64,000 nt of DNA from a virus, in IMG/VR virus record IMGVR_UViG_3300037010_003043, positions 6,132-70,131 of that record, one strand, 5' to 3'. The notes beneath the pieces are model-generated. The model was given only the letters and a program-made list of their open reading frames with translations. It ran no database searches and was not told the DNA's origin. The translations under genes and the position numbers were made by a program. Of this stretch, positions 3,810-63,855 are shown piece by piece (the first letter of the stretch is position 1; each line of letters begins with the position of its first letter).

Positions 3810-3938
3810 TTAACTATCTTTTTTATTTCCATCTTTATCATAATCATATTCGTTGTATCCATTTACTATCATATCCATTTGGATCATATCCATCTCTATT
3901 ATATCCATCTATCTCTATCATAATCATATCTATCATAA
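3810..3938 (-). pseudogene. Frameshifted relic of the GYDxx tail of the 3939..4904 paralogue
   Basis: After the TAG, shifted frames read DSYDRYDYDRD, DGYNRDGYDPNGYDS and NGYNEYDYDKDGNKKDS*. Confidence 0.8.
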
Positions 3939-4904: not shown

Positions 4905-4920
4905 AGTTTTATTTTATTTT

Positions 4921-6255: not shown

Positions 6256-6272
6256 TATTTTATATTATTTTT

Positions 6273-7702: not shown

Positions 7703-7784
7703 TTTTAACTCCAATTTTCTATACTTCTTCGTATATTAAAATACAAAATTCAATATATTTTTAAACCTTATTTTTCCATATTTT

Positions 7785-15779: not shown

Positions 15780-16355
15780 CTAAACTTTTATTTTTCCAAA
15801 GTTATCATATTCTCGAATAGTTTTTACAACATCTGCTTTAAATGAAGCTGTAAAGGTTCTAAATTCTGGAACATTTGAAGCATAAGATAATTCTAATTCA
15901 CTTAATCCAAAGAAAACAATATAATCATACTGAAATGTAACTAATAAATATCCATATCTATCTAATAACATTAAATGAAAACTAGGTAAATGTGAAATAC
16001 TTTCTTTATTTTTGTTCATTTTCCAATAATATTCCAATAAATCATACATAACAAAATAATTAATATAACTTTCTGTTGTTTTAAATGTTACAATTAATTC
16101 TTTAGAAGTATACATTTGCAAATTCCAACCACCTGGAAAATATTTAACCCCATGATCATTAAATTGTTCTACAACTTCAGTTGAAATAGATGGCCAAGAA
16201 ACAGATTGAACTGTAAAATTCATATAATCTACTAAATTATTATATGGCATTTTAAGTCTTTTTATAAAAGGATCGTATTTATCAATTATTTCCTTTGTAA
16301 AAAAATTAGGTGGAAATTTAAAAATAAAATCATTGTATTTACTATTTAGTATCAT
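15780..16355 (-). CDS. Tail tube/terminator-fold protein (gp3/gp19-like)
   Basis: VQSVSWPSI, L.VTF...E.Y.NY, LSELELSY, FTASF pattern; last gene of the structural operon. Confidence 0.55.
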   Translation of the reverse strand: MILNSKYNDFIFKFPPNFFTKEIIDKYDPFIKRLKMPYNNLVDYMNFTVQSVSWPSISTEVVEQFNDHGVKYFPGGWNLQMYTSKELIVTFKTTESYINYFVMYDLLEYYWKMNKNKESISHLPSFHLMLLDRYGYLLVTFQYDYIVFFGLSELELSYASNVPEFRTFTASFKADVVKTIREYDNFGKIKV

Positions 16356-36648: not shown

Positions 36649-38490
36649 TTATAAACTTTTATTATAACTATAACGTATTTCAGAATCAGAATTTTGTCTT
36701 GAACTTTCTTTTGTAAAAATAACATTAACTGCACAACTCTGATTTTTACTTAAACCAGAAAGATATGTAGTACCAACTCTGTCTTTCCAACCACCTCTAA
36801 ACAATGGTATTGTTCCATTTTGAATAACAATATCACCATTTATATCTATATAATCAGCTGCAAATTGTCTTATTTCTAATTGAGAAAATATAATTCTAAG
36901 TTTTGTATCTGTATTTAAATCATTGTATTTTTTAAATTCAGTTGTAATATTATTAATAACAGACGGATTACCATTTTTAAACAATTCGGGTATGTCATCA
37001 AGATTTTCATTTGTTGTATTAAGTGTCAATAAAGCAGACATAACTTTTTCAATATCTTCTGAAATAAAAAATAACGAAACAGAATCAAGACCATCAATAC
37101 CTTCTAAAGATGCTATAATATCTGATTTTGGTAGAATATCATTTCTTTTAAATGATGAAAAATATGAACTTAATCTTTCAATAATTGAATTATAAACATT
37201 GTCTTTATTATAACCCTCCCAAGTTTTTACATATAAATATAATACATATTTTTTAAAAATAGGATCAACAAATTTTAAAATAGAATTTATTATTTTTTTA
37301 CCAGATTGTTCGACTAAATTATAAATTTTAATTTTTTCTAAATCAGTTAATTTAAAATACTCCTCAGGTATTGTAAAATAATTTTCACCTTTTCTATATC
37401 TTTTTGAAATATCCGGTATTAATAAACAATATACTATATTGTCTAACCAAGGCCTAACATAATCAAATTTTGTAAAAATATCTATATATGAAAATAATTG
37501 AAATTTTTCAAAAAACGAAAAATAATGAGATGTATTTGCTAAAACAAAAGATCTTGATGTATTAGGAGCGATTAATTTTGTTAAAAATAAAGGTTCTGGG
37601 TTACTTGCAAAATTAACAGGAGTTGCTAAATAAATATTAAAAATTTCATTTAAATCAATTTCTGTTCCTTGTGAATCATAACCGGAATCTAAAAATTCAA
37701 ACGATGCACTATCATTATTTACGATATTACCATCTTCACCATTATTAAGTAAATATTCAACTTTTATTTCAGCTCCAGGAGATGGTGCTAATCCAAAATT
37801 ATTATTACCAAAATATAAATCCAAACCACCATTTATACCAGTTCTAACAATACAAGCTTTTTCATTATAAGTTAAATCTAAAAAAGAATCTTTAATACCC
37901 CACTTTTCACCATTTACATAGACAGAAATCATAAATTGATCTACATATAATCCAAGTTTTGTAAAAATATTAAAACTTTGATATAAATTTCCATTTGATG
38001 TAAATGTTTGTGATTCAGCGTAACCTTGATAAATTTTAAACATTCTTTTTTCACCAGGTTGAAAAAGATTTAATTTAAGTTCTTCTTCTGAAAAAACGGC
38101 GGTATACATTAAACCCGTATCATTATTTTTCAAACGAGATAAATTTTTAATTGTTATTGTAGGTCCTGACATATCAGGAATTATACCATTATGCGAAATC
38201 ATTAAAGATCCAGAAGCTGAAATTGCACGCGTAGGGTTATGTCCTGCTAAAACTGCTAAACCTCTAATCGAATTTGGTCTAGAAGCTGTTGTCATAAACA
38301 TTTCAGTAATAGAATCTTCTATATAGTAAAATATTTTTTGAGACAAATTTATTAAAGTTACCATTATTTGTCCCCAAGGACTTGCCGCAGTAAACATATT
38401 TCGAGTGTTTTTATAAACACTTTGTATAAAATCTGTTACTTCAGTACTTAATTCATCGAACTTAATTTTTGAAAGTTTAAAATAGTTCAT
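36649..38490 (-). CDS. gp6: Baseplate wedge protein gp6-like
   Basis: TASRPNSIRGLA..GHNP.RAISA, LYFGNNNFG..P..GAEI.VEYL..NGEDGN; follows gp25. Confidence 0.8.
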   Translation of the reverse strand: MNYFKLSKIKFDELSTEVTDFIQSVYKNTRNMFTAASPWGQIMVTLINLSQKIFYYIEDSITEMFMTTASRPNSIRGLAVLAGHNPTRAISASGSLMISHNGIIPDMSGPTITIKNLSRLKNNDTGLMYTAVFSEEELKLNLFQPGEKRMFKIYQGYAESQTFTSNGNLYQSFNIFTKLGLYVDQFMISVYVNGEKWGIKDSFLDLTYNEKACIVRTGINGGLDLYFGNNNFGLAPSPGAEIKVEYLLNNGEDGNIVNNDSASFEFLDSGYDSQGTEIDLNEIFNIYLATPVNFASNPEPLFLTKLIAPNTSRSFVLANTSHYFSFFEKFQLFSYIDIFTKFDYVRPWLDNIVYCLLIPDISKRYRKGENYFTIPEEYFKLTDLEKIKIYNLVEQSGKKIINSILKFVDPIFKKYVLYLYVKTWEGYNKDNVYNSIIERLSSYFSSFKRNDILPKSDIIASLEGIDGLDSVSLFFISEDIEKVMSALLTLNTTNENLDDIPELFKNGNPSVINNITTEFKKYNDLNTDTKLRIIFSQLEIRQFAADYIDINGDIVIQNGTIPLFRGGWKDRVGTTYLSGLSKNQSCAVNVIFTKESSRQNSDSEIRYSYNKSL

Positions 38491-38492
38491 GT

Positions 38493-38855
38493 TTACACTT
38501 CAATATCTAATATTTTTACATCATCAATTTTAATATTTAAAACAAGCATATTATGATAACCTTCACTTTTAATACCTACATCATAATCTATTTTAAATTC
38601 AGATGATTCAGGCACAAATTTCGCTAATTGTGTATAAAAATCATCCCTTATTTGTAGTTCATTATATTTTGTTTCAAATAAATAATCATCTAAATTCATT
38701 CCTAACTCAGGTTGTCCAAGAACTTCACCTTTACGAGTATAAAGAATCATTTTAATTTTAGTAATTAAATTTTCTAATTTTGAATCTGATTCTAAAACAT
38801 TTTTTCTATATTTTGGATCAGTAGAATCTCTAAAATAAATTTCATTGTATGACAT
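38493..38855 (-). CDS. gp25: Baseplate wedge/sheath initiator gp25-like
   Basis: IKMIL.T.KGEVLG.P.LG..L..YLFE; likely start MSYNEI at 38855. Confidence 0.8.
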   Translation of the reverse strand: MSYNEIYFRDSTDPKYRKNVLESDSKLENLITKIKMILYTRKGEVLGQPELGMNLDDYLFETKYNELQIRDDFYTQLAKFVPESSEFKIDYDVGIKSEGYHNMLVLNIKIDDVKILDIEV

Positions 38856-38869
38856 TTTGCATTTATTTT

Positions 38870-39601
38870 TTAATGGTACATAAAGAACCAATCTGCAACA
38901 TTTTCTTCGTCAATTTTTTGTAAAACCCATTCAACTTCTGTTTGACCATCTGATTTTAAATCAGCAAAATTAACTTGAACATTACCAGGTAATGGAAAAG
39001 GGTACATACCTAAAATATTTGCCAACGAAATTTTTGATTTACCAATAATAAATCTTAAAAAATAATAATCATCGTATAATTTATCGATAGCAATTTTTGA
39101 ATAACCTTCAATATAAACATCAAATTTAGGATCTCTTCCCAATATTCTTAATTTGTGCGTATTCCTATTATAATTATAAGCAATTTGTTCTAAGAAAAAA
39201 GCTTTCGCTAAATCAAAATATTGATATTGTGCAGTTCTCATAACTAAATCATCACCATGAAAACTTGAAAGAAATATTTCTGATGCTATTAATCTGTCTT
39301 CAGCAAAATCACGATCTATATTACCTAATCTACCAACACCATTAATTTCCTTCACATTATAAACTGAAACTATACATTCTGGTAATAATAAAGTTCTTGT
39401 TTTTTTAAATTGAGGATTGTTAAAATCCTTTTTTTCTATAACATAATGCTGAGGTTCGGCAGCAGCACTATAATTTTCAAAAAACCATCTTGAAGATTGT
39501 AAAATTATTCTTTTTATTTCTTTTTCTTCAAGAACTATTGGTAATGAACCAGAACCTGAAAGTTCATTTTGCACTTCTTGAATAAAAGTAGATTCAGTCA
39601 T
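38870..39601 (-). CDS. gp13: Neck protein gp13-like
   Basis: Y.YNRNTHKL.I, K...ANILG....LPGNV.VN...L..DG..E. Confidence 0.7.
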   Translation of the reverse strand: MTESTFIQEVQNELSGSGSLPIVLEEKEIKRIILQSSRWFFENYSAAAEPQHYVIEKKDFNNPQFKKTRTLLLPECIVSVYNVKEINGVGRLGNIDRDFAEDRLIASEIFLSSFHGDDLVMRTAQYQYFDLAKAFFLEQIAYNYNRNTHKLRILGRDPKFDVYIEGYSKIAIDKLYDDYYFLRFIIGKSKISLANILGMYPFPLPGNVQVNFADLKSDGQTEVEWVLQKIDEENVADWFFMYH

Positions 39602-39617: not shown

Positions 39618-40928
39618 TTAATTTTCGACTTTTATACAATTATTTAAAATTGCTAATTGCGATGGTTCACCACTTCTAATTATACATTCATCTAATGTTC
39701 CATTTATTAAATTCTCTTTATTGTCAATATAACATTTAACTAATTTATTATTATACTGGATAGGTGATGTTATAACTTTACAATTATTTATTAAATTTCC
39801 TTGTTGAATTTGACAGTTTTCGATATGCGAATTATTAATTTCACAATCTATAAACATACAATTATTTAAAAATCCTGATATTTTAGAGTTTAAAATTTCA
39901 TATTTAGATATATTATGACAATTAGATAATTTAGCATCTTTTATTTGAATTTGACCCATTTCACTATCATAATTTATATGTCCTTCTTTAATATTAGCAT
40001 TAATTAATAAATCATAAATCCTATCCTTAATATTACCCCAAAATGATTTTATAATTTCTTTATCAAATTTCATATCTATAGTTATAACAATTTCCGGATA
40101 ATTATAAGCAAGTTTTTCTAAACTAAATGTAGATTCTAATATTTTCTTATGATTTTTTAAAATTTTTGACAACTGAAATAAATTTTCTTCTGTATATTGT
40201 GGATATTTCAACGTATTATATAATGTTAATACCCAATTATCTTGTAATTCTAAAATTTTATCAATTTTTTTATTATAATTTTCGCCACCTAAATATCTGA
40301 ACTCTAAATAATTTTTTTCTTGTTTTAAAAAATTTATACCAAAATATTTTGTGTTAGGAACATGAAAATTTTCTGGATTTATAAACTTAATGTTATCTGT
40401 TATTACATAAGGGTTATTTGGTTTAATAGTTTTTACAGATCTAGCATAAGTATTAAATTTTCTATTTGGAAAATATTTATAAATTAAATTTTCATCTATA
40501 TCTAATGCTAATTTTAATCTATCTAAATTTAAAATTGAAATTTTTTCAAATTGTTGTTTCATAGGTAAAAAACTAATATTTAAATGTAATCCTGTTTTTT
40601 CAGTCGTCCATCCATTATCGCTTATCCAATTTAAAATATTTATTAAAGTAATTCTTGCTTCATTATAAAGTAAAGGTCCTGTTACTAATTCCTTCATTTC
40701 ATTACCACCAGAAAAATCAGGAGTTAAAATCCATTTTTTTCTATCAGGCTTTTCTTTAGGCTTTGCAGGAACATACCAATTATCTAAATCTTTTAACTGA
40801 TATGGTATAATAACCTTTTTCTTTAATAATTTACCTATTTCCTTTGCAATTTTTTCATTAGATAATTTTGAAAAAAATTCAAATTCAAATCCAATTTGGC
40901 TTAATTGTAAAATATCAAGTGAAGTCAT
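39618..40928 (-). CDS. Putative amidoligase (COOH-NH2 ligase) with C-terminal beta-helix-like repeats
   Basis: GFEFEF, PD.S, ELVT, GLHLNISF, KY.GINF, LEFR..GG. Confidence 0.75.
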   Translation of the reverse strand: MTSLDILQLSQIGFEFEFFSKLSNEKIAKEIGKLLKKKVIIPYQLKDLDNWYVPAKPKEKPDRKKWILTPDFSGGNEMKELVTGPLLYNEARITLINILNWISDNGWTTEKTGLHLNISFLPMKQQFEKISILNLDRLKLALDIDENLIYKYFPNRKFNTYARSVKTIKPNNPYVITDNIKFINPENFHVPNTKYFGINFLKQEKNYLEFRYLGGENYNKKIDKILELQDNWVLTLYNTLKYPQYTEENLFQLSKILKNHKKILESTFSLEKLAYNYPEIVITIDMKFDKEIIKSFWGNIKDRIYDLLINANIKEGHINYDSEMGQIQIKDAKLSNCHNISKYEILNSKISGFLNNCMFIDCEINNSHIENCQIQQGNLINNCKVITSPIQYNNKLVKCYIDNKENLINGTLDECIIRSGEPSQLAILNNCIKVEN

Positions 40929-40943
40929 TTAAAAAATAATATT

Positions 40944-40955
40944 TATTTATATATT
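40944..40955 (-). promoter_or_regulatory. Putative late promoter AATATATAAATA
   Basis: Contains the T4 late consensus TATAAATA; lies just downstream of a terminator hairpin and upstream of the amidoligase. Confidence 0.55.
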
Positions 40956-40960: not shown

Positions 40961-40993
40961 ACTTTTAGGCTCTAAAAATAAGAGCCTAAAAGT
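40961..40993 (-). terminator. Intrinsic terminator after the S1-like gene
   Basis: Perfect 13-bp inverted repeat acttttaggctct-aaaaata-agagcctaaaagt. Confidence 0.75.
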
Positions 40994-41018: not shown

Positions 41019-42173
41019 CTATTTTTTTAACTTTAAATATATTTTATTAGTTTTAGTATCAACAAAATTAATAAGTAAATTTAACTTATCGTTAATTTTT
41101 GGTTCAAAATTATTTGGATAATCTTTATAATAAAGTAAACCAACAAAAGAATTATTTTCATAATTAAATTTTACAAATGTTCCATAATCTGTAATATTAA
41201 AAATTTTACCTTCTAAATAAGATTTTTCAAATTTATTTTTAAAATCTTCTATTGTAATACTTTTATTTTCTTCTTTATTATTTGTTAAAATTATTTTATT
41301 ATCGTTTGTTATTTGTTTAATGTAAAAAGAAATATCAGAACCAGATTGATAAAATCCTTTATTAAATTTTAATTTTTCTTCTTCTGTCATTTCGCTTAAA
41401 TGTAATAAACCCGTAAAAAGGTCATCCCATTCAATAAATATAGAAAATTTAGAAATACCAGTAACTTTACCAAAATATAATTTTCCTATTTCTAAATTTT
41501 TTAATTTTTCATCAATAACATATAAAATATATTTTTTATTTGAAACAATAAAAGTTTTATCATCTTTTAAATAATCTTCGATCATTACATCAACTGACTT
41601 ACCAATAAAATTATTAAAATCTATAATTTTATTGGCAGCAGCCAAACTTCCAGGTAAAAATGTTTTAATACCATCTATTATAGCAATAAAACCACCTCTA
41701 TTTTTTTCTAAAATTTTAGCTTTATAAATTTTATTAGAATCTTTAATTTGATTAAAAAGTTCTGTTTGCTTATTTAATATAAAATTTTTAAATAATGATC
41801 CTTTTATAACTTCATTTTCCTCTGTAGCAATCAACTTAAAATTGCCTGTTTTAAACCAAGATCGACCATTTTCTGAATCTAACCATTTTAAAGCTTCTTC
41901 TGTAGTAGAAAAAAATAAATTATTAAGTTCAAAAAATTTCTTTTCTTTTTTATATAATAAAGGTATTTCTAATAAATTTTCACATAATACATTAAATTCA
42001 CCTTTTTGTATGTTTACAGAAATTAACTCTAATATCTGTAATTGTTCTTCGTCGACAATATCCTTTTTAATAAATCCCCATTTTAAATAATCATCCATCG
42101 CATCTGGATGATCAAATTTGTATTCGTTATCTTTTAAAAGTTGTAATACTGTTTCATAATTTTTTTCTATCAT
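41019..42173 (-). CDS. Ribosomal protein bS1-like protein (three S1/OB domains)
   Basis: NRGGFIA.IDGIKTFLPGS; G.VTGI.KF..F.E.....GLLHLSEM; GKI.NITDYGTFV. Confidence 0.8.
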   Translation of the reverse strand: MIEKNYETVLQLLKDNEYKFDHPDAMDDYLKWGFIKKDIVDEEQLQILELISVNIQKGEFNVLCENLLEIPLLYKKEKKFFELNNLFFSTTEEALKWLDSENGRSWFKTGNFKLIATEENEVIKGSLFKNFILNKQTELFNQIKDSNKIYKAKILEKNRGGFIAIIDGIKTFLPGSLAAANKIIDFNNFIGKSVDVMIEDYLKDDKTFIVSNKKYILYVIDEKLKNLEIGKLYFGKVTGISKFSIFIEWDDLFTGLLHLSEMTEEEKLKFNKGFYQSGSDISFYIKQITNDNKIILTNNKEENKSITIEDFKNKFEKSYLEGKIFNITDYGTFVKFNYENNSFVGLLYYKDYPNNFEPKINDKLNLLINFVDTKTNKIYLKLKK

Positions 42174-42203: not shown

Positions 42204-42845
42204 TTAAGCTATTTTAACAATTTCACTACAAACATCTTCTTTAGCTGATTGTACTTGCAAAGAACAAGTACTTGGTGCTCCATATTTAGAATCTATTGCA
42301 CTGGCTAATTTATTTAAAAGTTCAAATAATTTATCACATTTCGTATCTGGATGATTAGCTGAATGTCCAACTTGCACATCCGGACAATCTATATAATGAT
42401 GTGGAGATTTTTCTATAATATCTGCACCTCCTGGTGTAATATTAAAAAATGCTGATTTTAACCAAACAAAAAGTCCTTTATTTTTTGTAAAAATTATTTT
42501 CAAATCTTCATCTTCATCGTAAACTAAAACCTGAGCATTTTCATAACTTTCTTTTATTTCACTTTGCATTTTTTCATTTATATCCTCAATAATAGAATAT
42601 TCAGGTGACATTAAATCGCCATTTTGAAAATTAATCCTAACAGGCGTATTTAATTTCGGATATGAAAACGATCCAAAACCCTGAGAACCAGCAAAAATTG
42701 TGCTTTGTTGAGGAAAACACCAAGGTAAATCATCATCAGGAATACCATCAAATATACCAGGAATCATTATTTTACATCTTCCTAAAAATAATGGATCGTC
42801 ACTTTTTTTAATAATTCCTATAAATGTTTTGTTTAAATCCATCAC
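42204..42845 (-). CDS. Baseplate central spike gp5-like (N-terminal OB domain, no lysozyme)
   Basis: DDPL.LGR.KI.IPG.......LPW.FP...PK....V...F..GD...P.Y. Confidence 0.75.
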   Translation of the reverse strand: MMDLNKTFIGIIKKSDDPLFLGRCKIMIPGIFDGIPDDDLPWCFPQQSTIFAGSQGFGSFSYPKLNTPVRINFQNGDLMSPEYSIIEDINEKMQSEIKESYENAQVLVYDEDEDLKIIFTKNKGLFVWLKSAFFNITPGGADIIEKSPHHYIDCPDVQVGHSANHPDTKCDKLFELLNKLASAIDSKYGAPSTCSLQVQSAKEDVCSEIVKIA

Positions 42846-42851: not shown

Positions 42852-45302
42852 TTATTTTTCATTATTATATATATTTTTTGGATTTATTCTACTATTTGGT
42901 TTATACCCATCTAAATTAACTCTTCCAAGTTTTATTCTTGTTGGAATATAACCACTAAGATCTGGTTTAGTGATCGAATTATTTACAGGTGTTTCACTAA
43001 GATCTAATTTTGTAATTGAATTATTTACAGGTGTTTCACTAAGATCTAGTTTAGTGATCGAATTATTTACAGGTGTTTCACTAAGATCTAATTTTGTAAT
43101 TGAATTATTTACAGGTGTTTCATTAAGATCTAGTTTAGTGATCGAATTATTTACAGGTGTTTCACTAAGATCTAATTTTGTAATTGAATTATTTACAGAT
43201 GTTTCACTAAGATCTAATTTAGTAATTGATTTATTTATAGATATTTCATTAAGACTCGGTTTAGTGATTGAATTATTTATAGGCGTTTCGCTAAGACTCG
43301 GTTTAGTGATTGAATTATTTACAGGTGTTTCGCTAAGACTCGGTTTAGTGATTGAATTATTTACAGGTGTTTCACTAAGATCTAATTTAGTGATTGAATT
43401 ATTTACAGGTGTTTCGCTAAGACTCGGTTTAGTGATTGAATTATTTATAGGTGTTTCGCTAAGATCTAATTTAGTGATTGAATTATTTACAGGTGTTTCG
43501 CTAAGACTCGGTTTAGTGATTGAATTATTTACAGGTGTTTCTATATTTTCTATAGAAGAAATATTCGTTTTAATATAATTATTTTCAGATTCAACTTTTA
43601 ATGTATTTAATTCATTTTTAGTTTCATCTTTACTTAATTTATAAATATTGTCATTTTTGAATACTTTAACTTTATTTAAATCTAATAATTTTGGAACATC
43701 ATAGATATTTTTATCAATAATTTTTTCAATATCTTCGTTAATATTAGTTTTACTATCATAAATATTTTTCCAACTGCCTTCAGGATAAAATTTATCATTA
43801 CGGATTATTGGTGCTACAATTTTATCTATTTTATCATTTAAATTATTGGCATTATTTTGATTTGAAAATATATTTTTTAATTTTTTTGAAAGACCAAAAA
43901 TATCTTCTAATTCACTTAAACCACCAGTTACACTATCTATTAAATTAGTAATTGACGAAACTGCATTATAAACATCTTTTAAACTACCAATTTTATCTAA
44001 ATTTTTAATTATATTGGTTCCATTTTCGTAAGCTGATAAACCAATATCTTTAACTTTCATTATTCTATTTACTTTGTTCGTTACATTTGATATTTCACTA
44101 CCAAGTTTTTTATCAAGTTTACCAACTAACGCTGCAGCATAAGGTCCTTGCGATGCAATATCTTTAGTAACACTGTCTATACTAAAACCACTATCATCTT
44201 TTGTATCAATAGGATTATTATTTTTATCAAATTTTCCTTTAGACTTTGAAGATAATTTTGTAGACTCGATTGAACCATCTTTTGGATTAAAATAAGCTGT
44301 CCAATTTAAATGTTGATCTTTATATTTATTTAAATTATATTTACCTTTTATATTAGTGTCATCAACACCAATCCAATCTTCGTTATCAGATAAAATCCAA
44401 TTCCATATACCATATTGATGTCTTTCTAAATAATTACCAACTTTTATTTTAAATCTCATATTTGCAGGTGTGTCAGGTTTTTGGTTAGTCAGTGTAGTTG
44501 CCCAAGGAAAATCTTCAAATATAAATTCACAATCTCTTAATTCTATAATGTGAAATGTCATATTGTTATCTATTGCAGATTGTAATATAGACATTTCAGC
44601 TGTTAACGATTTATTGTAATCCGTTGATCCTGAAATTGACGCAACTCTTATATTATCATAAGAAGTTACTCCGCCTTGAATGTCATTTTTCTGTTTTTCA
44701 ATTGCTGTATTTAATACATTTTCAACTGATCCAAGAATTAAATCTAAATTTCTTATTTCTGATATTATTATTTTTGCATTAAATCTTCGTTTATCGTAAG
44801 GTAAAATATCTCTTTTCCATGTTTCGTTATATGTAGCTTTTCTATATAAATTTGCTAAATAAGACATTCTCATATCAACTGTTTCTAATGTATCTATAGT
44901 TAAAATTTTATCTTTACCTCTCCAAGTATTACCAGGTGGTTGAGGTTTAAAAAGTTCTTCTACGCCCGAAATAGATTGGAAATACCAAGGCATTTCCTTT
45001 TCAACATATTTTAATTGAGCAATAAATTCTGTAAGCATTGCAGCTTCATTTTGTTTGCCTACTCGTTCTAAATAATTAATAGCTGATTCTATTTCATTTC
45101 CTTGTAATAACAATCCACCTAAAATTTTATCACCAAGAGTAACACCAGATGCATCGCGATAATCTTCGTTTAAAAAAGAAAATTTAAGTGCAAATCCTAA
45201 AAATGTAGGCTCATCAACGCCTTGCATATAAGTATAATTTCTACTAAGTTTATCAGGACTTAATAAAAATTTTCTAATATTAATTTGATTTGTCTTTATC
45301 AT
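42852..45302 (-). CDS. Tail-tube-fold baseplate protein with a long low-complexity C-terminus
   Basis: PWYFQSISG, LTI.TLE.VD.R...L..LYR; 14 repeats of 14 aa near the C-terminus. Confidence 0.5.
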   Translation of the reverse strand: MIKTNQINIRKFLLSPDKLSRNYTYMQGVDEPTFLGFALKFSFLNEDYRDASGVTLGDKILGGLLLQGNEIESAINYLERVGKQNEAAMLTEFIAQLKYVEKEMPWYFQSISGVEELFKPQPPGNTWRGKDKILTIDTLETVDMRMSYLANLYRKATYNETWKRDILPYDKRRFNAKIIISEIRNLDLILGSVENVLNTAIEKQKNDIQGGVTSYDNIRVASISGSTDYNKSLTAEMSILQSAIDNNMTFHIIELRDCEFIFEDFPWATTLTNQKPDTPANMRFKIKVGNYLERHQYGIWNWILSDNEDWIGVDDTNIKGKYNLNKYKDQHLNWTAYFNPKDGSIESTKLSSKSKGKFDKNNNPIDTKDDSGFSIDSVTKDIASQGPYAAALVGKLDKKLGSEISNVTNKVNRIMKVKDIGLSAYENGTNIIKNLDKIGSLKDVYNAVSSITNLIDSVTGGLSELEDIFGLSKKLKNIFSNQNNANNLNDKIDKIVAPIIRNDKFYPEGSWKNIYDSKTNINEDIEKIIDKNIYDVPKLLDLNKVKVFKNDNIYKLSKDETKNELNTLKVESENNYIKTNISSIENIETPVNNSITKPSLSETPVNNSITKLDLSETPINNSITKPSLSETPVNNSITKLDLSETPVNNSITKPSLSETPVNNSITKPSLSETPINNSITKPSLNEISINKSITKLDLSETSVNNSITKLDLSETPVNNSITKLDLNETPVNNSITKLDLSETPVNNSITKLDLSETPVNNSITKLDLSETPVNNSITKPDLSGYIPTRIKLGRVNLDGYKPNSRINPKNIYNNEK
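42954..43541 (-). repeat. 14 x 42-bp in-frame tandem repeat
   Basis: Encodes ETPVNNSITK(P/L)(S/D)L(S/N) x14; no spacers. Confidence 0.95.
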
Positions 45303-50899: not shown

Positions 50900-51304
50900 T
50901 TAAAATTGTTTAAAAAATTTTTCATAATAAGCTAAAAAAATACCTTTAAGTAAAATATCCTTATAATTTTTTATTTCTGATATATTAATTAAATCTATAT
51001 TTTTAAAATAATCTTCATTTTTTGTAGACATCGAATAAAAATGAAAAATATTTTCAGTTTTAGATAAAAAATCTAAATTTAAATCAAATGTACCTAAAAA
51101 TTCTATTTCATCTAAATTTACAGGTATTTTATTTTTTTCTAAATATGATATTAATATATCAAATGAAATTTCAGAATCCTCAGGTTTTAATAAAATTGCA
51201 TTTTTTAATTTTACACCAATTTTATTAGGATTATCAAATTCATCTAATAATACTGGTAAAAAAATTACAAATTCTCTTTGAATATCAATTTTCTGTTGGC
51301 TCAT
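50900..51304 (-). CDS. Hypothetical protein
   Basis: 134 aa, overlaps the upstream gene. Confidence 0.55.
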   Translation of the reverse strand: MSQQKIDIQREFVIFLPVLLDEFDNPNKIGVKLKNAILLKPEDSEISFDILISYLEKNKIPVNLDEIEFLGTFDLNLDFLSKTENIFHFYSMSTKNEDYFKNIDLINISEIKNYKDILLKGIFLAYYEKFFKQF

Positions 51305-52076
51305 CTTGTTGTTTTATTTTATAGTACTCCGTAATAGCATCTTTTATGCTATTTTTAATATCTTCTAAATTATTAATTATTATAAAATTATATATTTTAT
51401 CTTCTAAATTTTCAAATTCAAAATTTTCTAAAATTGAATTTAAAACTATATTTTTAGGAATATTAAATAAAACATTCAAGTAAACTTCACTTTTTTTAAT
51501 TTTGCTAAATATTAAATTAAATGGATCATCTTTAAATTGATCATTTTTGATATTTTTATTTGTATTTATTGTTTTATTTTTTGATATATCTTCGATATTA
51601 GAAATATCTTTTTTATTTAAAACTTGTACATCATCTCCTAAAAAACCTAATCCCATTTTTCCAAATACTTCATGATATTCTGGTGCTTTATCTAATACTT
51701 TAAAATCTGTATTTTGTTTTATAACCTCGGATATAGGTTTATTTAAAATATCATCTTCAAGACCTTTTGTTTTATCGATAAAAGTATCGAATTCTTTCAT
51801 TTCTGTAACTAAAGTTTCTGTTGGCATTACAACTCCAGATTTAAAAACAACATAATATTTACTATTCTGTTCGGCTGTATGATCTACGACTTCAACAATA
51901 CCATATTTTTTTTCATCTAAATAAATAAATTTTTTATCTTTTAAACTATCTTCGTTTGGATCTAATTTTCTTACTTTTGTTTTTCCCGAAAAAGATGAAT
52001 TATTAAAACTATTATTTTCACTTGAAGCAGAAGAAGATAAATTTTTTAATGCATTTACTAAATTATTAAATTCCAA
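51285..52076 (-). CDS. Hypothetical protein
   Basis: 263 aa; TTG start with AGGAG RBS. Confidence 0.65.
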   Translation of the reverse strand: MEFNNLVNALKNLSSSASSENNSFNNSSFSGKTKVRKLDPNEDSLKDKKFIYLDEKKYGIVEVVDHTAEQNSKYYVVFKSGVVMPTETLVTEMKEFDTFIDKTKGLEDDILNKPISEVIKQNTDFKVLDKAPEYHEVFGKMGLGFLGDDVQVLNKKDISNIEDISKNKTINTNKNIKNDQFKDDPFNLIFSKIKKSEVYLNVLFNIPKNIVLNSILENFEFENLEDKIYNFIIINNLEDIKNSIKDAITEYYKIKQQDEPTEN

Positions 52077-53946: not shown

Positions 53947-54285
53947 TTATAAAACTTCTAATTGTAATATGAAAAATGTGCCTGCAACTAATACATGAAC
54001 ACCTAAAAATATTAATCCTGTTATAATCGACGCTCCTAATTGTTCAGATGTATTTACTGTTCCATCATCACCGCTATACATTTTTTTAATAAAATTTACT
54101 TTAGTATACGCAAACAATGCTAATCCAGACATACCTACAGCCATACCTTCAAGTACAGTAATAATAAGAAATTTACCAATCAATTCACGTGTAGGTTGAA
54201 TAAAATAACCTGCAACCAAAATTAAAGCAACCCATACTAAATGCCTTAATAACCAATTTCCAACTATTTTTAATTGTTCTTTCAT
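53947..54285 (-). CDS. Holin-like membrane protein (3 TM)
   Basis: Three hydrophobic segments; directly upstream of the CHAP amidase. Confidence 0.55.
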   Translation of the reverse strand: MKEQLKIVGNWLLRHLVWVALILVAGYFIQPTRELIGKFLIITVLEGMAVGMSGLALFAYTKVNFIKKMYSGDDGTVNTSEQLGASIITGLIFLGVHVLVAGTFFILQLEVL

Positions 54286-54310: not shown

Positions 54311-54481
54311 TTATTTAGTTTCATTTGTTTTTTCATCTGTATTTGTTTCAATTATGAAAAAATCAACAGCATCTGAAACAAGTCTTGCTTCTTTTAAATT
54401 AAAAACACCAGCTTTTTGCGCCAATTGAACAGCTTGTATTAAAACTTCTAATGCAGTTTTTGCATCTTTTATTTCTGACAT
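54311..54481 (-). CDS. Small helical protein (56 aa) absent from the ORF track
   Basis: MSEIKDAKTALEVLIQAVQLAQKAGVFNLKEARLVSDAVDFFIIETNTDEKTNETK; GGAG RBS. Confidence 0.75.
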   Translation of the reverse strand: MSEIKDAKTALEVLIQAVQLAQKAGVFNLKEARLVSDAVDFFIIETNTDEKTNETK

Positions 54482-56327: not shown

Positions 56328-56543
56328 TTATTTCTCTACTTTTTCTTTAGATTTTTTAAAAGTTTTTGCAATTTCTACTGATTTCTTTTTATAATCAGTA
56401 ATTATTTTTTTTAATTGATTAATCGCACCTCTTGCACGAACACCTGCTGCAGCATTAGATTTTTCTACAAATTTTTCATGTTCAGTTTTAAAAGTTTCAA
56501 TCAACTCTGTCATTTCATCGTAAAGATTATTAAAATCTTTCAT
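56328..56543 (-). CDS. Histone H1-like (Hc1-family) nucleoid protein
   Basis: KFVEKSNAAAGVRARGAINQLKKIITDYKKKSVE matches the N-x-AAG-x-RAR pattern of Hc1-type proteins. Confidence 0.75.
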   Translation of the reverse strand: MKDFNNLYDEMTELIETFKTEHEKFVEKSNAAAGVRARGAINQLKKIITDYKKKSVEIAKTFKKSKEKVEK

Positions 56544-58331: not shown

Positions 58332-58454
58332 TTAAAAAAAATCTATTTCAAAATCTGAATTTGAAGTAAAATTTAGTAATAATTGTTTCATATCATCTTT
58401 TAATTGACCAATAAATAATTTCTTTCTGTATTTACATATAAATATTAAATATTT
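58332..58454 (-). pseudogene. tnpA: Relic of an IS200/IS605-family Y1 transposase (N-terminal fragment)
   Basis: Frame reads KYLIFICKYRKKLFIGQLKDDMKQLLLNFTSNSDFEIDFF*; no start; stops before the HUH motif. Confidence 0.7.
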
Positions 58455-60142
58455 TTTACGTATTTAAAATTTCCAGGTGTTTCAACTCTTAAATAATTTA
58501 GTTCTTCCATTATTTGTCTTTCAGTTTTATTTTCATCAAATCCTTTTTTAATTAAATTAGATTTTGTAAACTTAAATCTATTGAAAACCTCACCATCTTT
58601 AAAATAAAAATATCCTTTGTATATTTTATTCATTTTTTGAAAACCTAATTTTTCATATAAAGAACCATTTGATATTAAAATGTCAGAATAAGAAATTATT
58701 TTATCAATATTGTATTTTTTTATAAAATTACTTAATAATCTACTTGCTGCACCCGGTATTGAATAATTTTTTAAAATAGCAAAACGATTTATTTCCCAAT
58801 CAGAATTATTTTTAAACATTACTCTGCCTTTAGAAAATGTCATAACAGCGAAAATTTTATTATTAAGAGTTAATGTTATTGATTTTTGATATTTAGCAAA
58901 TCCTTGTAAATGATTTTCGTTTAAAAAGTTTTTTATATCTTCATATTTAGGATTAAAATCTACTTCTAGTTTTCTTGCAAATAATCTATTCATTTTAAAA
59001 TTAAGTTTATTTTTTATCATAGATTTTATTAATTCTGTTTTATTAAATAAATCATTTTGCCAAAAAAACATTAATTCGTAATTTGAAAATTTTTCTTTAA
59101 TTATTTTAAAATCGTTAAAATTAAGGTAAGGCATAAAAACAAACATATATTGTTTATTTTTATCATATACTGCTAAAATTAATGTAAAATTATCACTAAT
59201 AACAGAAATAAATTTATTAAAATTATTTTCTAAATCATAAAAAAGTGTATAAATTGATTTTACTTCAAATATAAATTTTTCATTTTTTAAGTATAAATCT
59301 GGTCTATATAAATGTTGCTTTTCATTTATTGTATATTCAAAAATAGGACAATTCCATTCAGTTGCTATATTTTCAAAATTTTCATTATTATTTTTTAAAT
59401 CGTCTAATAATTTATTACCGTAACCTTGATATAAAATTTTATTATTTTTATCCCATTGATAAAATTTTGAATTTTTAGAACTTTTTACCATTTTTTCATA
59501 AATTTCTGGTACAGAATATGGATTTTTGTTTCCGTATTTTTCTAACATTGTATTTTCAAATTTTTCTCTAATTTCTGGACATTGAAAAGAATTTCTAACA
59601 CCATATTTTTTAATCATAGTGTTGGCTAATTTTTCTTTTACTTCTGGATTTTTCATCCAATGGTTATAACCTGTTTTTTCTTTATAGTTATTTTTTCTTT
59701 TTTCTATAACTTCAGGAATTTTACTATTATAAGGCGTATCTATACCATATTTTTTAATATTACCTTGTCTAAATTTTTCTTTATATAAATTTCTATATTC
59801 ATTTTTTTTATCATCACTTAACGAAAGCCACCAATTTTTAGCAATTTTTGATTTGTTTTTATTTAAGCATTTTATTGAACAATATTTTTTAGGTCTTTTT
59901 GTTATTTTTATTAATTTACCACACTCTAAACATATTAATGGATTTTTTACATCTAATTTTGCATATAAATATTTTTCATCATAAGATAAATCAATATTGA
60001 AATTTTTGCAATGTTCTTCGATATACTCTTGTGCTTCCTTGTTATTTTTTATAAAGTAATAAATTTTAGCATTAATAGATTGTTTACTTGAATTTGAATT
60101 TTCTTTATAAAAATTTTCAATGATGGTTTGTAATTTATTCAT
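58445..60142 (-). CDS. Free-standing homing-endonuclease-like protein (Zn finger, KYG repeats, PD-(D/E)xK, Hef-like/GNAT-like C-terminus)
   Basis: CLECG..YCSIKC; T..KKYGV.N repeats; YRPDLY...FEVKS; FARK..FLNENHLQG..INRFA..GAASRLL..ISYSD..LYEKLGF. Confidence 0.75.
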   Translation of the reverse strand: MNKLQTIIENFYKENSNSSKQSINAKIYYFIKNNKEAQEYIEEHCKNFNIDLSYDEKYLYAKLDVKNPLICLECGKLIKITKRPKKYCSIKCLNKNKSKIAKNWWLSLSDDKKNEYRNLYKEKFRQGNIKKYGIDTPYNSKIPEVIEKRKNNYKEKTGYNHWMKNPEVKEKLANTMIKKYGVRNSFQCPEIREKFENTMLEKYGNKNPYSVPEIYEKMVKSSKNSKFYQWDKNNKILYQGYGNKLLDDLKNNNENFENIATEWNCPIFEYTINEKQHLYRPDLYLKNEKFIFEVKSIYTLFYDLENNFNKFISVISDNFTLILAVYDKNKQYMFVFMPYLNFNDFKIIKEKFSNYELMFFWQNDLFNKTELIKSMIKNKLNFKMNRLFARKLEVDFNPKYEDIKNFLNENHLQGFAKYQKSITLTLNNKIFAVMTFSKGRVMFKNNSDWEINRFAILKNYSIPGAASRLLSNFIKKYNIDKIISYSDILISNGSLYEKLGFQKMNKIYKGYFYFKDGEVFNRFKFTKSNLIKKGFDENKTERQIMEELNYLRVETPGNFKYVKNI

Positions 60143-60264: not shown

Positions 60265-62028
60265 TTAGAAAATAGTTGTAACATTTCCTGTATGAACATA
60301 AAATGTGTAATATTGTGTTTGTGGCCATTGACCAGCCTCTACTAATGCATATCTTGATTTAACAGCAATTTTTGGAGCCATTGTACCTTCTGCGATAGTT
60401 TGAATAGATTCAGCCATTAAATAAGGCATAAATTTTAAACCAGGTTCTTGATCCTCACCTTTTCTACCTACCAAAATTCTATTATCAGTATATGTCATAT
60501 TAGGATCAACATATATTGTCATACCAGCTAAAGTTCCAATTGGATATAAAGAGCCGTTTGATTGATTAATTGTATTTTGCATTGGTGCAAAAGTGAATTG
60601 AGCAGAATCTTGTAAAGCAGTTGCTAATTGTAAATTTGTAACTGCAAAATTAGCAGGACCACGTCTACCTCTTTGAGCAATAATATTACCTGCCGCAATT
60701 AATTTAGATTGAATCCTACGTTGAATAGTATGCATATTCTCAAAGCTTCCAAAATCAGCGAATGGATTTACAGGAATTCTTTCAGTAAATCCAACTTTAT
60801 TTAAATAATAAGGAGATTGTAAAGCATTAACTTGTGTATGGTCAACTGTAAAGTTTAATGTTGCACCTTCAACTTTTAAAAATTCTGCATTATTTGTCCA
60901 ACCTAATGCAAAAGCTCTTGATAAAATATGTTTATTTATAGCTTGACTAATTTCATTAACTAAAGCATTTTCAATCATACTTACAACATCTAAACCAAAT
61001 TGCTTATTTAAATCTTGAATTTGTTCAGTTGTTACTGTTGCACTTACTTGATAAGTTTCAGCTTCAATAAATTTAGTATAAGCTTGAATATTCATTGGTC
61101 TATAGTAAGTAGATTCTCCTGTACCTCTTCCCATTGGAGTCATTGGAGTAGCACCATCAGTAAATGGACCTGTCCAATTATCTTGATCATAAGTACCAGC
61201 TCCAGAATAGCCTTGAATATGATCTTCTAACCCTCTTACTAAACCTGCTTTAGCTGTACAAGCAATACTATTTGTAGTTGCTAATGATGCATAAACAATA
61301 GGTTTTCCATTATTATCAGTAGTAATTATTGCATCTGTATCAAATATTTCAGAAATTGCAATCGATTCATCAACTGTCCAATTTGAATTATCAGCAGCTG
61401 CAGTATATGTATTACCAATTCTAAAAATTGGATAACCAGTAATTCTTGAGTAACCAATAAATAACATTTCAATTACTTTTTTATCAGCATTTGCAGATGT
61501 ACTAACACCCCAATATTTTGTACCAACTGTGTATTTATTTGAATTAATATTATCTACATCAACTGAAATTACTAAAGGTTGTTCGGTAGTTCCAGGTTTT
61601 CCACCGCCATAAACATAATCTAAATATGTTAATACGCCTGTTGGACCTGGCATAGGAATTACAGATACTATATCAAATCCTACAGTTCTTGCAGCAACTT
61701 GAATTGCTAAAGGTAATAATGAAGGGAATTTATCACCAGAACCAGTTGTGCCAGTATAAAATGACGCAGGACCACCAGGAGCGGCACCAGGTCTTACAGC
61801 ACCCATACCTGGAACATTACCTAAAGTTGCTGCCGTTCCATAAGCAAAAGATTCATTTAATGTATTAGAGTTATCATACATAGCATGATTATGACAATAT
61901 TCAGCCAACCATTGTTCTTTACCAGAGTTTACAAGACCAAAGGTATTTTTTAATTTTTCAGCGGGTATTTGCTGTTCTAACAGTCCATACCATTCACTTA
62001 AAACATTCTCATTTAAATAATTTTTCAT
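60265..62028 (-). CDS. gp23: Major capsid protein, T4 gp23-like
   Basis: V.VIPM.GPTG, T.EQIQDL....GLD....I.N.L..EI...IN..I, RRG.ANF, G.L.G...YVDP, PK..VKSRYAL. Confidence 0.95.
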   Translation of the reverse strand: MKNYLNENVLSEWYGLLEQQIPAEKLKNTFGLVNSGKEQWLAEYCHNHAMYDNSNTLNESFAYGTAATLGNVPGMGAVRPGAAPGGPASFYTGTTGSGDKFPSLLPLAIQVAARTVGFDIVSVIPMPGPTGVLTYLDYVYGGGKPGTTEQPLVISVDVDNINSNKYTVGTKYWGVSTSANADKKVIEMLFIGYSRITGYPIFRIGNTYTAAADNSNWTVDESIAISEIFDTDAIITTDNNGKPIVYASLATTNSIACTAKAGLVRGLEDHIQGYSGAGTYDQDNWTGPFTDGATPMTPMGRGTGESTYYRPMNIQAYTKFIEAETYQVSATVTTEQIQDLNKQFGLDVVSMIENALVNEISQAINKHILSRAFALGWTNNAEFLKVEGATLNFTVDHTQVNALQSPYYLNKVGFTERIPVNPFADFGSFENMHTIQRRIQSKLIAAGNIIAQRGRRGPANFAVTNLQLATALQDSAQFTFAPMQNTINQSNGSLYPIGTLAGMTIYVDPNMTYTDNRILVGRKGEDQEPGLKFMPYLMAESIQTIAEGTMAPKIAVKSRYALVEAGQWPQTQYYTFYVHTGNVTTIF

Positions 62029-62049: not shown

Positions 62050-63855
62050 CTACGATAATCTTTTTAAACCTAAAGCCAATTGATTCATATAAGAACTTCC
62101 ATAAGTACTTTTTACTTTTTCGGAATATTCAACTGTTTCGTTTAGCTTTACAAATTCAACAGCTTCATTTAATTTAGGACGAGTTTCCCAAAATGCTTTA
62201 ATTTGATATGGCGTTGATAAATTATAATATGTTGCTTGAGCAAAAATTCTATTTTTAGAATTTTCATCTAATTTTTCCCAAATAGATTTATAATTTTCAG
62301 GCATCATTGAAACTAAATATTCTTTTTGTTTTGATTCGTCTATCGGATTTAGAGTTTCGTTCCAAATTGAAATAAAATCTGCTTCATTCATAGGTTTTGA
62401 TTTAATAACTTCTTCAATAATTTTTGTTTTTTGATTATTTGGAAGTAATAAAAATTCTCTTTGTTTTGATTCGTTTAAAAGCTTAAAATAAGGAAAGTTA
62501 GCTTTTGATACTACATCTTCTGTCTTTTGTTTTTTGACAGATTCGATTAGAGAATCTATTTTTGAAATTAAATTTTCAGAATTGTTAAAGTTTTCATTTA
62601 AAGATACATTTAAATTATTTGATTGTGATTCTATAACTTTATTAGTAGAAATATTAGATTCGTTAATTCCATCTTTAATATATTCTACATATTCAATTAC
62701 ATTATTCATATTTTCAGTCAAATAATTATTATGTTCATAAATATTATTTACATTTTCAGTTAAATAATCAGTAAATTTAATAAGATTATTAATGTTTTCA
62801 ACCAAATAATTATTATGTTTTATTAAATTATTAACATAATTAGATTGATATTCTGTATAATCAGTCAAATTATTTACATTTTCATTAACATGATTTAAAT
62901 AACCTTCTACATTACTTACATTTTCATGAACATGATCTAAATAACCTTCTACATTACTTACATTTTCACGAACATGATCTAAATAACCTTCTACGTTATT
63001 CTTATCTTTATTATAAGATTCGACATTTGAATCGTTATAATCTATAAATTTTTTATAATTACTTGAGAATTCGGATAAATAATGATTAATGTTATCTAAG
63101 TTTTCTTTAATATCTTTATTAATAGTATAAGGTGTTTCTTTATTATTATTAATTTTTTCCATTAATGACTCATATTGCTCTTTAATATGAGTAGTATATT
63201 TTTCCATCATCTCGGTTGTCACAAGATTTGTATTATTCATATTTTTTATATTTTTTTCTTCATTGTCACTATAAAAATCAAATTTATTTTCATACAAATT
63301 AGAAACATCATAAATAGCAATATTTTCGTCATCATTACTAAGTCCAAAACTTTCATTAATTTTATTTAATTGAGCATTTGAAAATCCAGGTTCAGCTACT
63401 AAATCATAAGCAAATATTTTTTTAATTTCTACTGTATTATTTTCCTTTACGATACCAGCCGCTCTTGAAGATATTGATAATTGAAATCCTGCATCAACCA
63501 AAGCCATTGCATTTTTACCAGCTTCAGTATTAACAAGTCTAATTTTACCTCTAATTTGACGATTTTCTTTATCATATTCTAAACTTTCTACGGCATGGGA
63601 AACGTTTTTTAATGATATATCAAATTCTTTTGGATGATCTAATTCACCAAATAACATTCGTTTCTTAATTTTATCTTGTAAATAATCTAAATGAGGAAGA
63701 TATTCTTTTTCTTCGTAGATTCTTTTATTATTATTAAGAACTCCAAATTGCGCAAATATACCTTCTAAAACATATCCACCAGAATCTTTATCTTTAACTT
63801 CTAAAGTAGAACCTGTTTTTTCAAGGATCATTACTAATTTTTCACTGTCTTTCAT
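62050..63855 (-). CDS. gp21: Prohead protease gp21-like fused to a scaffold-like region
   Basis: LEGIF, N.N.RIY, GELDHP, VSH, ISSRAAG, D.V.EPGF..A; about 430-aa helical C-terminus with many L/I-x-E sites. Confidence 0.9.
   Translation of the reverse strand: MKDSEKLVMILEKTGSTLEVKDKDSGGYVLEGIFAQFGVLNNNKRIYEEKEYLPHLDYLQDKIKKRMLFGELDHPKEFDISLKNVSHAVESLEYDKENRQIRGKIRLVNTEAGKNAMALVDAGFQLSISSRAAGIVKENNTVEIKKIFAYDLVAEPGFSNAQLNKINESFGLSNDDENIAIYDVSNLYENKFDFYSDNEEKNIKNMNNTNLVTTEMMEKYTTHIKEQYESLMEKINNNKETPYTINKDIKENLDNINHYLSEFSSNYKKFIDYNDSNVESYNKDKNNVEGYLDHVRENVSNVEGYLDHVHENVSNVEGYLNHVNENVNNLTDYTEYQSNYVNNLIKHNNYLVENINNLIKFTDYLTENVNNIYEHNNYLTENMNNVIEYVEYIKDGINESNISTNKVIESQSNNLNVSLNENFNNSENLISKIDSLIESVKKQKTEDVVSKANFPYFKLLNESKQREFLLLPNNQKTKIIEEVIKSKPMNEADFISIWNETLNPIDESKQKEYLVSMMPENYKSIWEKLDENSKNRIFAQATYYNLSTPYQIKAFWETRPKLNEAVEFVKLNETVEYSEKVKSTYGSSYMNQLALGLKRLS
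62662..62997 (-). repeat. Eight 14-aa (42-bp) repeats in the scaffold region
   Basis: NVEGYLDHVRENVS, NVEGYLDHVHENVS, NVEGYLNHVNENVN and five diverged units. Confidence 0.85.

Follow-up and report, generated by a model that had tools for sequence, protein, structure and literature searches.

Genes for ribosomal proteins carried by phages are among the few hints of viruses re-programming the ribosome itself. In huge phages, Al-Shayeb et al. 2020 found that genomes carrying a possible ribosomal protein S1 (rpS1) rarely have Shine-Dalgarno (SD) sequences, and proposed a role in initiation (PMC7162821), while Mizuno et al. 2019 considered S1-domain proteins ambiguous and left them out of their account. 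For another protein of the small subunit, bS21, Chen et al. 2022 described phage copies located among head genes, expressed late and possibly encapsidated. Here we report on a phage homologue of bS1 encoded at positions 41019-42173 of a 64,000-nucleotide (nt) stretch, hereafter the window, which comprises bases 6132-70131 of one 70,131-bp virus contig (IMG/VR record IMGVR_UViG_3300037010_003043). The contig has a G+C content of 23%, and its minus strand holds almost all genes. We know of no S1-type phage ribosomal protein that has yet been tested experimentally.

The product of the gene, 384 amino acids (aa) long, matched the Pfam S1 domain with an E-value of 3.3e-13, the best stretch being residues 228-296. 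Against solved structures, residues 154-383 aligned with residues 112-347 of E. coli-type bS1, that is with domains D2-D4, in a single colinear alignment (E 1.5e-15). These two results bear out an earlier note, made from the letters of the window, which had seen three S1 domains resembling D2-D4 of bS1. The top solved-structure match was 9zcd_A, a bS1 of 591 aa (E 9e-20), and the top NCBIfam models were all '30S ribosomal protein S1' equivalogs, the best of them reaching 80.3 bits where the cut-offs are 368-918. A scan of PHROGs assigned the protein to no family, as was also the case for 28 of the 50 other window products scanned. The 384-aa protein is a true, far-diverged homologue of bS1.

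The earlier note further described an unrelated N-terminus of about 140 residues, and on this point our results differ. We used an alignment of the window protein and 45 relatives (A1, 46 sequences) as input for AlphaFold2, and obtained a model with a mean predicted local distance difference test (pLDDT) of 90.8 and a predicted template modelling score (pTM) of 0.71. It contains four five-stranded barrels, at residues 43-126, 150-211, 232-297 and 319-382, the first of which is a fourth OB barrel lying within the supposedly unrelated part. The best PDB matches of the model found by Foldseek were ribosome-bound bS1 chains (9gut_B, E 2.6e-19). When superposed with VIA-align, model residues 25-217 fell on residues 3-174 of chain B of 9guq, a 30S pre-initiation complex (Z 13.7, root-mean-square deviation (rmsd) 3.9 A, 168 of 172 residues), residues 22-384 on residues 1-350 of 9gut_B, from an entry titled 'bS1 resolved' (Z 12.9), and residues 23-211 on residues 18-186 of the M. 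smegmatis bS1 (Z 10.0). The second N-terminal helix region superposes on the N-terminal helix of bS1, the alignments beginning at model residues 21-25 and chain residues 1-3. At the profile level, A1 positions 14-302 match the plastid 'S1 homologue' 28jw_a, and positions 63-405 of a sub-family profile (A4) are colinear with residues 29-362 of M. smegmatis bS1. As modelled, the N-terminus is a divergent D1 following a helix region and not a foreign domain, and the whole protein has the bS1 order helix-D1-D2-D3-D4 minus D5-D6; the chain stops two residues past the D4-like barrel, whose last strands are at 363-372 and 377-382 of the 384 residues.

Within this order the signatures of two domains are well kept. 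The D2 signature GGF.V...G..aFLPGS is present, with G160, G161, F172, P174 and G175 invariant or nearly so in the 46 sequences, and in D3 of the same sequences F246 is invariant while G235, G239, G244, T254 and G255 are invariant or nearly so. We suggest that the N-terminal helix region together with D1-D2 corresponds to the ribosome-docking half of bS1, and that D3-D4 would act as two canonical RNA-binding S1 domains. The presence of the latter would also suit a protein working off the ribosome, as an RNA chaperone, a stabiliser of late mRNA, or a cofactor of a phage nuclease or polymerase in the way host bS1 serves T4 RegB and Q-beta replicase. Such extraribosomal phage uses of bS1 are documented (PMC13157829), Al-Shayeb et al. 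do not decide between action 'on or off the ribosome' (PMC7162821), and the score of the protein far under the rpsA equivalog cut-offs points the same way. We find a purely off-ribosome function somewhat unlikely, however, as the protein has retained D1-D2 with the D2 signature, a half that bS1 uses to dock on the ribosome rather than to bind RNA, and as about a quarter of the family carries an aromatic N-terminal motif like that of the F. johnsoniae bS1 anchor.

The bS1 of F. johnsoniae binds uS2 and uS8 through a helix-loop-helix made of its residues 4-40, part of which is the aromatic helix FLANFNWHNF (PMC13000457). The pattern [FYW][DNE]W was found within the first 90 residues of 29 of the 119 family members of 340-450 aa, 28 of which read F[DN]W, often followed by xxY; elsewhere in the same 119 proteins, motifs of this type occur at a rate of 0.008 per 90 residues. 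The Lak-C1 homologue, for instance, has SFNWTPYE. A profile of the F[DN]W-bearing members aligned no N-terminal segment to the solved bS1 chains, hence the likeness to the F. johnsoniae anchor helix is one of motif. A complex prediction for residues 1-220 (with A1) and Swiss-Prot RS2_FLAJ1 gave a score of 0.06, the mark being 0.32, and counts neither way.

The family to which the protein belongs is large, length-uniform and viral. In an exhaustive HMMER search, 2753 cluster representatives reached E<=1e-3, of which 87 were at E<=1e-30; a length of 340-450 aa was found for 119 of the 155 family proteins collected. At least 580 IMG/VR contigs encode a relative, and BFVD holds three viral proteins of the same fold, of about 373-385 aa, two of which are named '30S ribosomal protein S1'. 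By tblastn against 50,697 phage records we detected a relative in 31, the best being LR756500-LR756504, LR745206 and 15 Lak phages of Prevotella; there was no cultured carrier among the 31, which are all uncultured, Lak or doubtful. Four relatives examined measure 373-462 kb, and three of them, IMG/VR genomes of 373-425 kb, are rated 97-100% complete; the window contig is syntenic with these genomes and with LR756500.1 (462 kb).

Two members of the family deserve a separate remark. A contig of 425,361 bp filed in the species-representative genome set under the title of a 'Candidatus Pacearchaeota archaeon' metagenome-assembled genome (MAG) carries an S1 homologue, and is for this reason probably a mis-binned phage genome. 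The Lak-C1 homologue (L002 14539-15648) is 369 aa long and carries an acidic tail in place of the D4 of the window protein, the tblastn match ending at query residue 308.

The earlier note had placed the gene inside the baseplate module, and it is indeed flanked by a gp5-like hub gene and by gp25/gp6-like wedge genes (Table 1). To survey the surroundings of the family, we searched 83 related loci by tblastn with every window product, and counted a locus for a given side when 3 kb or more was available there. On the same strand as the S1 gene and downstream of it, a homologue of the 39618-40928 gene was found in 73 of 78 loci, with a median distance to the tblastn match of 177 nt. A homologue of 38870-39601 was likewise found downstream in 73 of 78, and the gp25-like and gp6-like genes in 65 of 78 each, while in three further loci the S1 gene abuts the gp25-like gene directly. 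Upstream, the gp5-like gene was present in 31 of the 63 loci with at least 3 kb on that side. Among the surveyed loci, a baseplate-type context was undetected in Lak-C1 and LR756502 only. The conserved position in the baseplate module suggests late co-expression of the S1 homologue.

The same position could also mean that the S1 homologue, perhaps along with the product of the neighbouring 39618-40928 gene, is carried in the baseplate or tail, delivered with the DNA, and acts on ribosomes or RNA from the first minutes. This would be compatible with ribosome binding, the timing and location being what differs. The near-constant membership of the module, whether judged by the 39618-40928 neighbour, the two wedge genes or the loci where the gene abuts the gp25-like gene, favours such a virion cargo, and Chen et al. 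2022 raise encapsidation for phage bS21, which lies among head genes. On the other hand gene position alone is weak evidence, and the Lak-C1 and LR756502 homologues are not beside detectable baseplate genes. Taken together, we consider delivery with the virion unlikely.

The gene immediately downstream, at 39618-40928, is close to an obligate companion. In a search seeded with this partner, an S1 homologue was found upstream on the same strand in 68 of the 69 loci with at least 1.5 kb upstream; it should be noted that the S1-seeded and partner-seeded sets share loci and were both limited to the top 80. In 26 of 76 loci the two genes are less than 40 nt apart, with an overlap of 11 nt in several pairs. 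No Pfam (E<=0.01, including PF12224), NCBIfam or PHROG match was obtained for the partner product. Its AlphaFold2 model (pLDDT 92.3, pTM 0.88) shows, in residues 1-258, the catalytic fold of glutamine synthetase (8pvg_A from E. coli, Z 11.7, rmsd 3.1, 183 residues), with further matches to Dop (Z 8.6) and PafA (Z 7.7), and residues from about 300 to 436 form a beta-helix whose best low-rmsd match is the pentapeptide-repeat protein 2j8k_A (Z 8.7, rmsd 3.3); a profile also matches MfpA (E 2e-4). Many viral structures named 'amidoligase enzyme' match the model (E 4e-14 and weaker), and in a protein atlas PF12224 occurs in 12-29% of the members of the clusters nearest the partner, which we take as a lead only. 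Residues E15, E17, H115, E209 and R211 are invariant in 10 sequences, and judged from this conservation the partner looks like an enzyme with a live active site.

These features of the partner bear on yet another explanation, in which the four OB barrels would be an exapted building block of the baseplate and the RNA function would be lost. Baseplate hubs often contain OB folds, as does the gp5-like product of the gene next upstream, and the place of the gene in the module is conserved. Still, we regard this as most improbable: the 46 diverse members aligned have conserved the canonical S1 motif for RNA binding, colinearity with D1-D4 of bS1 is kept with the linkers included, and the partner, with its invariant ExE, H115 and E209/R211, looks like an active enzyme and not like a structural protein.

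We may speculate on what the pair does. RimK glutamylates bS6, and by analogy with this, and with Pup ligation by PafA, the S1 homologue and the ligase-like partner might form a two-gene cassette acting jointly on the host ribosome, possibly after virion delivery, with the S1 homologue at the bS1 site and the ligase adding a covalent modification to some ribosomal or translation protein, which would change the choice of leaders that are read. We hold this to be very unlikely; if true, such a cassette could explain the small SD-led gene set found in an otherwise SD-blind setting. The stretch between the two genes has features of its own. A terminator-like hairpin follows the S1 stop codon, and a comparable hairpin separates S1 and partner genes in 27 of 76 related loci. 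After the hairpin, 16 nt before the partner ATG, the T4 late-promoter motif TATAAATA is found at 40944-40951; the motif TATAAATA is marginally enriched, with 53 occurrences where 39.8 +/- 6.1 are expected from shuffling, a count reached by 4 of 100 shuffles.

The leaders of the contig were scored on a set of open reading frames (ORFs) made up of the longest ORF of at least 45 aa, picked greedily, in which small ORFs and start codons are uncertain. A strict SD was defined as GGAG, GAGG, AAGGA or AGGAG ending 3-12 nt before the start. By this definition 10 of the 67 contig ORFs have an SD, with spacers of 5-8 nt, compared to 3.5% before 1645 other sense-strand ATGs (P 1e-4), and if the ATG at 7702 is taken as the start of the 7544-7714 ORF, a GGAG with a spacer of 7 is gained, giving 11 of 67 (P 2e-5). 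The pairing of the strict motifs with a generic 10-nt anti-SD is modest, from -5.1 to -8.4 kcal/mol. The SD strings quoted in the earlier note were all recovered, namely AAGGAG for SSB, AAGGA for the 12206 ORF, AGGAG for 52076, GGAG for 54481, AAGGA for 54285 and GGGAG for Hc1, and so were its capsid leader and its acknowledged exception, the GGAG 7 nt ahead of the ATG at 7702. Its labels 'uvsY' and 'holin', for two of these ORFs, found no family match for either product.

The note had proposed a split between SD-less structural genes and SD-led non-structural genes, and when scored by gene class this proved half right. Within the virion block (15780-50035 together with the capsid and protease genes) none of 27 genes has an SD, compared to 11 of the 40 others (Fisher P 0.002). 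The remaining 29 of those 40 are without an SD too, as are 56 of 67 ORFs overall, and the helicase, primase, PNK-like, RuvC-like and endolysin genes are among the SD-less ones. When only family-annotated genes are counted the figures are 0 of 7 for virion genes and 3 of 8 for the others (P 0.2). The ORFs with an SD have a shorter median length, 131 aa compared to 307 aa (P 0.025), and are preceded by longer intergenic gaps. The leaders of 54 ATG-started minus-strand genes are rich in A, with 61-74% at positions -18 to -10 and 69% at -3 over a background of 42%, and those of the capsid and prohead protease genes consist of A/U only. By default, genes anywhere on the contig, including those for replication, have A-rich leaders with no SD, which are not a speciality of late genes.

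Related genomes show a similar picture. LR756500.1 (24% GC) has an SD before 16 of 670 ORFs, with a background of 3.8% and a flat spacer distribution. In the 374-kb genome G004, with 50% GC, 51 of 472 ORFs have an SD over a background of 9.3% (P 0.14), and A reaches 49-53% at positions -14 to -11 over a background of 25%. In neither of these two complete genomes are SD motifs commoner than the background. The closest colinear relative, the 97-kb G001, has an SD before 8 of 98 ORFs over a background of 2.2% (P 0.0015). The lineage is SD-poor throughout, and the sub-lineage of the window keeps an SD-led minority, none of it in the virion block. Regarding the SSB gene, which has the strongest SD of the window, AAGGAG is kept in the window and in L086 despite only 37% protein identity and with nearly all other genes lacking an SD, and this site may be regulatory rather than a simple ribosome-binding site. 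The idea of a deeply conserved SSB SD was rejected; the G001 orthologue keeps AAGGAG and is the only one with a strong SD, the site being weak in LR756500.1 and absent in three more distant orthologues.

The window most likely represents part of the genome of a huge phage whose host belongs to the Bacteroidota. The nearest relatives of its capsid protein are found in the same genomes as the S1 relatives, and thereafter in Sphingomonas phage PAU, Flavobacterium phage MaF61 and Tenacibaculum phage pT24; the genomes shared by the capsid and S1 relatives are those of Lak phages, which infect Prevotella, and of the huge phages of Al-Shayeb et al. 2020, who group Lak and the largest genomes in one clade and predict Bacteroidetes hosts for five genomes above 634 kb (PMC7162821). 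Genome contigs were also scanned with the Hc1 protein, which found no relative there, and with S1 alignment A2, whose only hits were a contig of 2 kb and the 425-kb phage contig with the archaeal MAG title. The Bacteroidota-type -7 motif TANNTTTG was not enriched in the contig (150 occurrences, 135 +/- 12 expected). Leaders in Bacteroidia show the A-rich pattern of the window, with A at -18 to -10 and at -3 (PMC13000457). The ribosomes of F. johnsoniae are SD-blind, adenines at -3, -6, -12 and -13 promote initiation, and added bS1 raised initiation on SD-less mRNA about 2-fold (PMC13000457, PMC9976891).

The leaders also decide what can be kept of the idea in the earlier note that the phage S1 may retune ribosomes toward SD-less late mRNAs. 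The bS1 homologue and the SD-free virion block stand; retuning finds no support, SD-less leaders being the contig-wide default, and is not needed, because the leader pattern matches that of the Bacteroidia, the probable host group; what stands out as odd is the small set of SD-led genes. More likely, the phage version of D1-D4 reinforces or replaces host bS1 in this default mode. We hence propose that the gene is a shortened, phage-adapted paralogue of bS1, and that its product serves initiation on SD-less phage leaders via the host 30S subunit, a proposal that in our judgement is evenly balanced between right and wrong. Made together with the baseplate (late) genes, the S1 homologue would occupy or supplement the bS1 site on host 30S subunits, and D3-D4 would capture the A-rich, SD-less leaders borne by nearly all phage genes. 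Phage initiation might in this way stay high at times of heavy demand for structural proteins or of scarce host bS1, in a host that probably belongs to the Bacteroidota, where SD-independent, bS1-stimulated initiation is the norm.

Several observations weigh against this proposal. The benefit of a phage copy is not obvious if the host already initiates on SD-less messages, and the SD-led minority of 11 in 67 ORFs is left unexplained. Position in the baseplate module fits a virion-associated role equally well. As to the protein, its NCBIfam score is below the curated rpsA standard, D1 is so divergent that searches of Pfam and solved structures with the single window sequence missed it, and the N-terminal region is the least confident part of the model. 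The window protein is without F[DN]W and reads YKFDH, one of the degenerate versions (YKFDH, DFDxE) seen in it and its closest relatives. Finally, the Hc1 and A2 scans of genome contigs gave no clue to the host.

Table 1. Features of the window bearing on the phage bS1 homologue, its domains, its neighbours and the leaders discussed in the text
Feature	Position	Strand	Details and basis
SD-led small ORF	7544-7702	-	GGAG 7 nt before the ATG at 7702
SSB gene	13797-14825	-	strongest SD (AAGGAG, spacer 5); phrog_224
Tail tube gene	15780-16355		PHROGs/Pfam
gp6-like wedge gene	36649-38490	-	PHROGs matches of the gp6-like and gp25-like pair (36649-38891): phrog_219, phrog_261, phrog_43
gp25-like wedge gene	38493-38891	-	PHROGs matches as for the gp6-like gene
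Partner gene	39618-40928	-	436 aa; glutamine-synthetase-fold amidoligase-like domain and C-terminal beta-helix; AlphaFold2, fold matches, linkage
Terminator-like hairpin	40961-40993	-	just past the S1 stop codon; 13-bp stem, loop 7, T-run
Phage bS1 homologue gene	41019-42173	-	384 aa; N-terminal helices and four OB/S1 domains
D4-like S1 domain	41028-41219	-	residues 319-382; sequence, model, superposition
D3-like canonical S1 domain	41283-41480	-	residues 232-297 (G.VTG..kFgiF.E....TGLLH.SEM); Pfam and family consensus
D2-like S1 domain	41541-41726	-	residues 150-211, GGF...FLPGS motif; sequence, A1 and profile match
Divergent D1-like OB barrel	41796-42047	-	residues 43-126, helical insert 74-110; model and superposition
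N-terminal region with two short predicted helices	42054-42173	-	helices at residues 6-14 and 25-30, within residues 1-40; pLDDT 64-75
gp5-like baseplate hub OB domain gene	42204-42845	-	upstream neighbour; phrog_430 E 1.7e-11; PF04717 E 3.6e-4, under the curated cut-off
Repeat-rich fibre-like protein gene	42852-45302	-	816 aa; weak PHROG tail-fibre match
SD-led ORF	51285-52076	-	AGGAG, TTG start; function unassigned
SD-led small ORF	53947-54285	-	AAGGA; three hydrophobic segments; adjoins endolysin gene
SD-led small ORF	54311-54481	-	GGAG
Hc1 histone-like gene	56328-56543	-	GGGAG, spacer 6; PF07432 E 6.5e-15
Major capsid gene	60265-62028	-	PHROGs matches of the capsid and protease genes: phrog_138, phrog_28442, phrog_207
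Prohead protease gene	62050-63855	-	PHROGs matches as for the capsid gene

Some further observations concern the neighbouring genes. The fibre-like product of 42852-45302 contains about 17 tandem copies of a 14-residue unit (SETPVNNSITKPSL/KLDL), and the repeats create a spurious ORF of 202 aa on the opposite strand. Between the head genes, at 58445-60142 on the minus strand, is an HNH homing-endonuclease gene (phrog_3339, E 1e-67), a copy of which is located near the baseplate module in LR756500.1 (L001 20081-21148). The minus-strand region 157-7547, called an 'array' in the earlier note, together with contig bases upstream of the window, holds ORFs of 321-444 aa, several of which have nearly identical leaders (AAAAAGATAGTTAAAAAATAA...ATG); the three scanned belong to no PHROG family.

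Compared to bacterial bS1 (rpsA), the phage protein has the same order of N-terminal helix, D1, D2 signature, D3 and D4 and superposes on the ribosome-bound form, while it is 384 and not 550-600 aa long, has no D5-D6 to complete the six S1 domains of Gram-negative-type bS1, has a divergent D1 with a helical insert of about 37 residues, and is encoded inside a baseplate module. Among short cellular bS1 proteins the nearest comparison is M. smegmatis 8wi7_b, a ribosomal protein of 479 aa, with which the A4 profile and the model agree over the ranges given above; it shows no affinity to the phage family beyond general bS1 homology. PhiMa05, a jumbo cyanophage, also encodes a bS1 homologue, which is one of six ribosomal proteins clustering with Vampirovibrio and possibly acquired from a Vampirovibrio-like host (PMC13157829), whereas the S1 of the window is a single, long-diverged and virus-specific family. 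With phage bS21 (Mizuno et al. 2019; Chen et al. 2022) the window protein shares that a homologue of a small-subunit initiation protein is encoded among virion genes of large phages with predicted Bacteroidetes hosts, and for bS21 a late substitution into host ribosomes has been proposed. The two differ in the protein and its ribosomal site, and in that bS21 lies with head genes on the opposite strand and S1 with baseplate genes on the same strand; bS21 (PF01165) was found in none of five S1-bearing relatives searched.

In a full-text search of the literature, with partial coverage, we came across no paper that describes the S1 gene within the baseplate module or its pairing with an amidoligase gene. 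PMC10286715 was considered as a precedent for S1 with baseplate genes and was rejected, as it concerns S16, and S1 is unmentioned in PMC12880540 on Jug phages. Among the known systems close to the window protein is the 'possible rpS1' that Al-Shayeb et al. 2020 described in huge phages; the closest tblastn relatives are such genomes (LR756500-LR756504 and LR745206) together with Lak. That phage rpS1 is linked to SD-poor genomes is already known from that study, and the association is reproduced here on LR756500.1 and in the SD-less majority of the window contig; the window phage and G001 differ from those rpS1 phages in keeping a small SD-led gene set. The D1-D4 architecture, the baseplate position and the amidoligase-like partner are not described in the available text of Al-Shayeb et al. 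2020. What this work adds is that architecture, a family both large and uniform in length, the fixed location of the gene among baseplate genes, the near-obligate association with a putative ligase whose modelled fold is that of glutamine synthetase, and the SD-led minority of the sub-lineage. With the general idea already in print, the value lies in a sharper anatomy and context and not in a new principle: a viral family of bS1 D1-D4 is defined, which keeps what would be the ribosome-docking half and is encoded in SD-poor genomes with A-rich leaders, and concrete constructs and leader pairs are now at hand for the existing Flavobacterium johnsoniae in vitro translation system.

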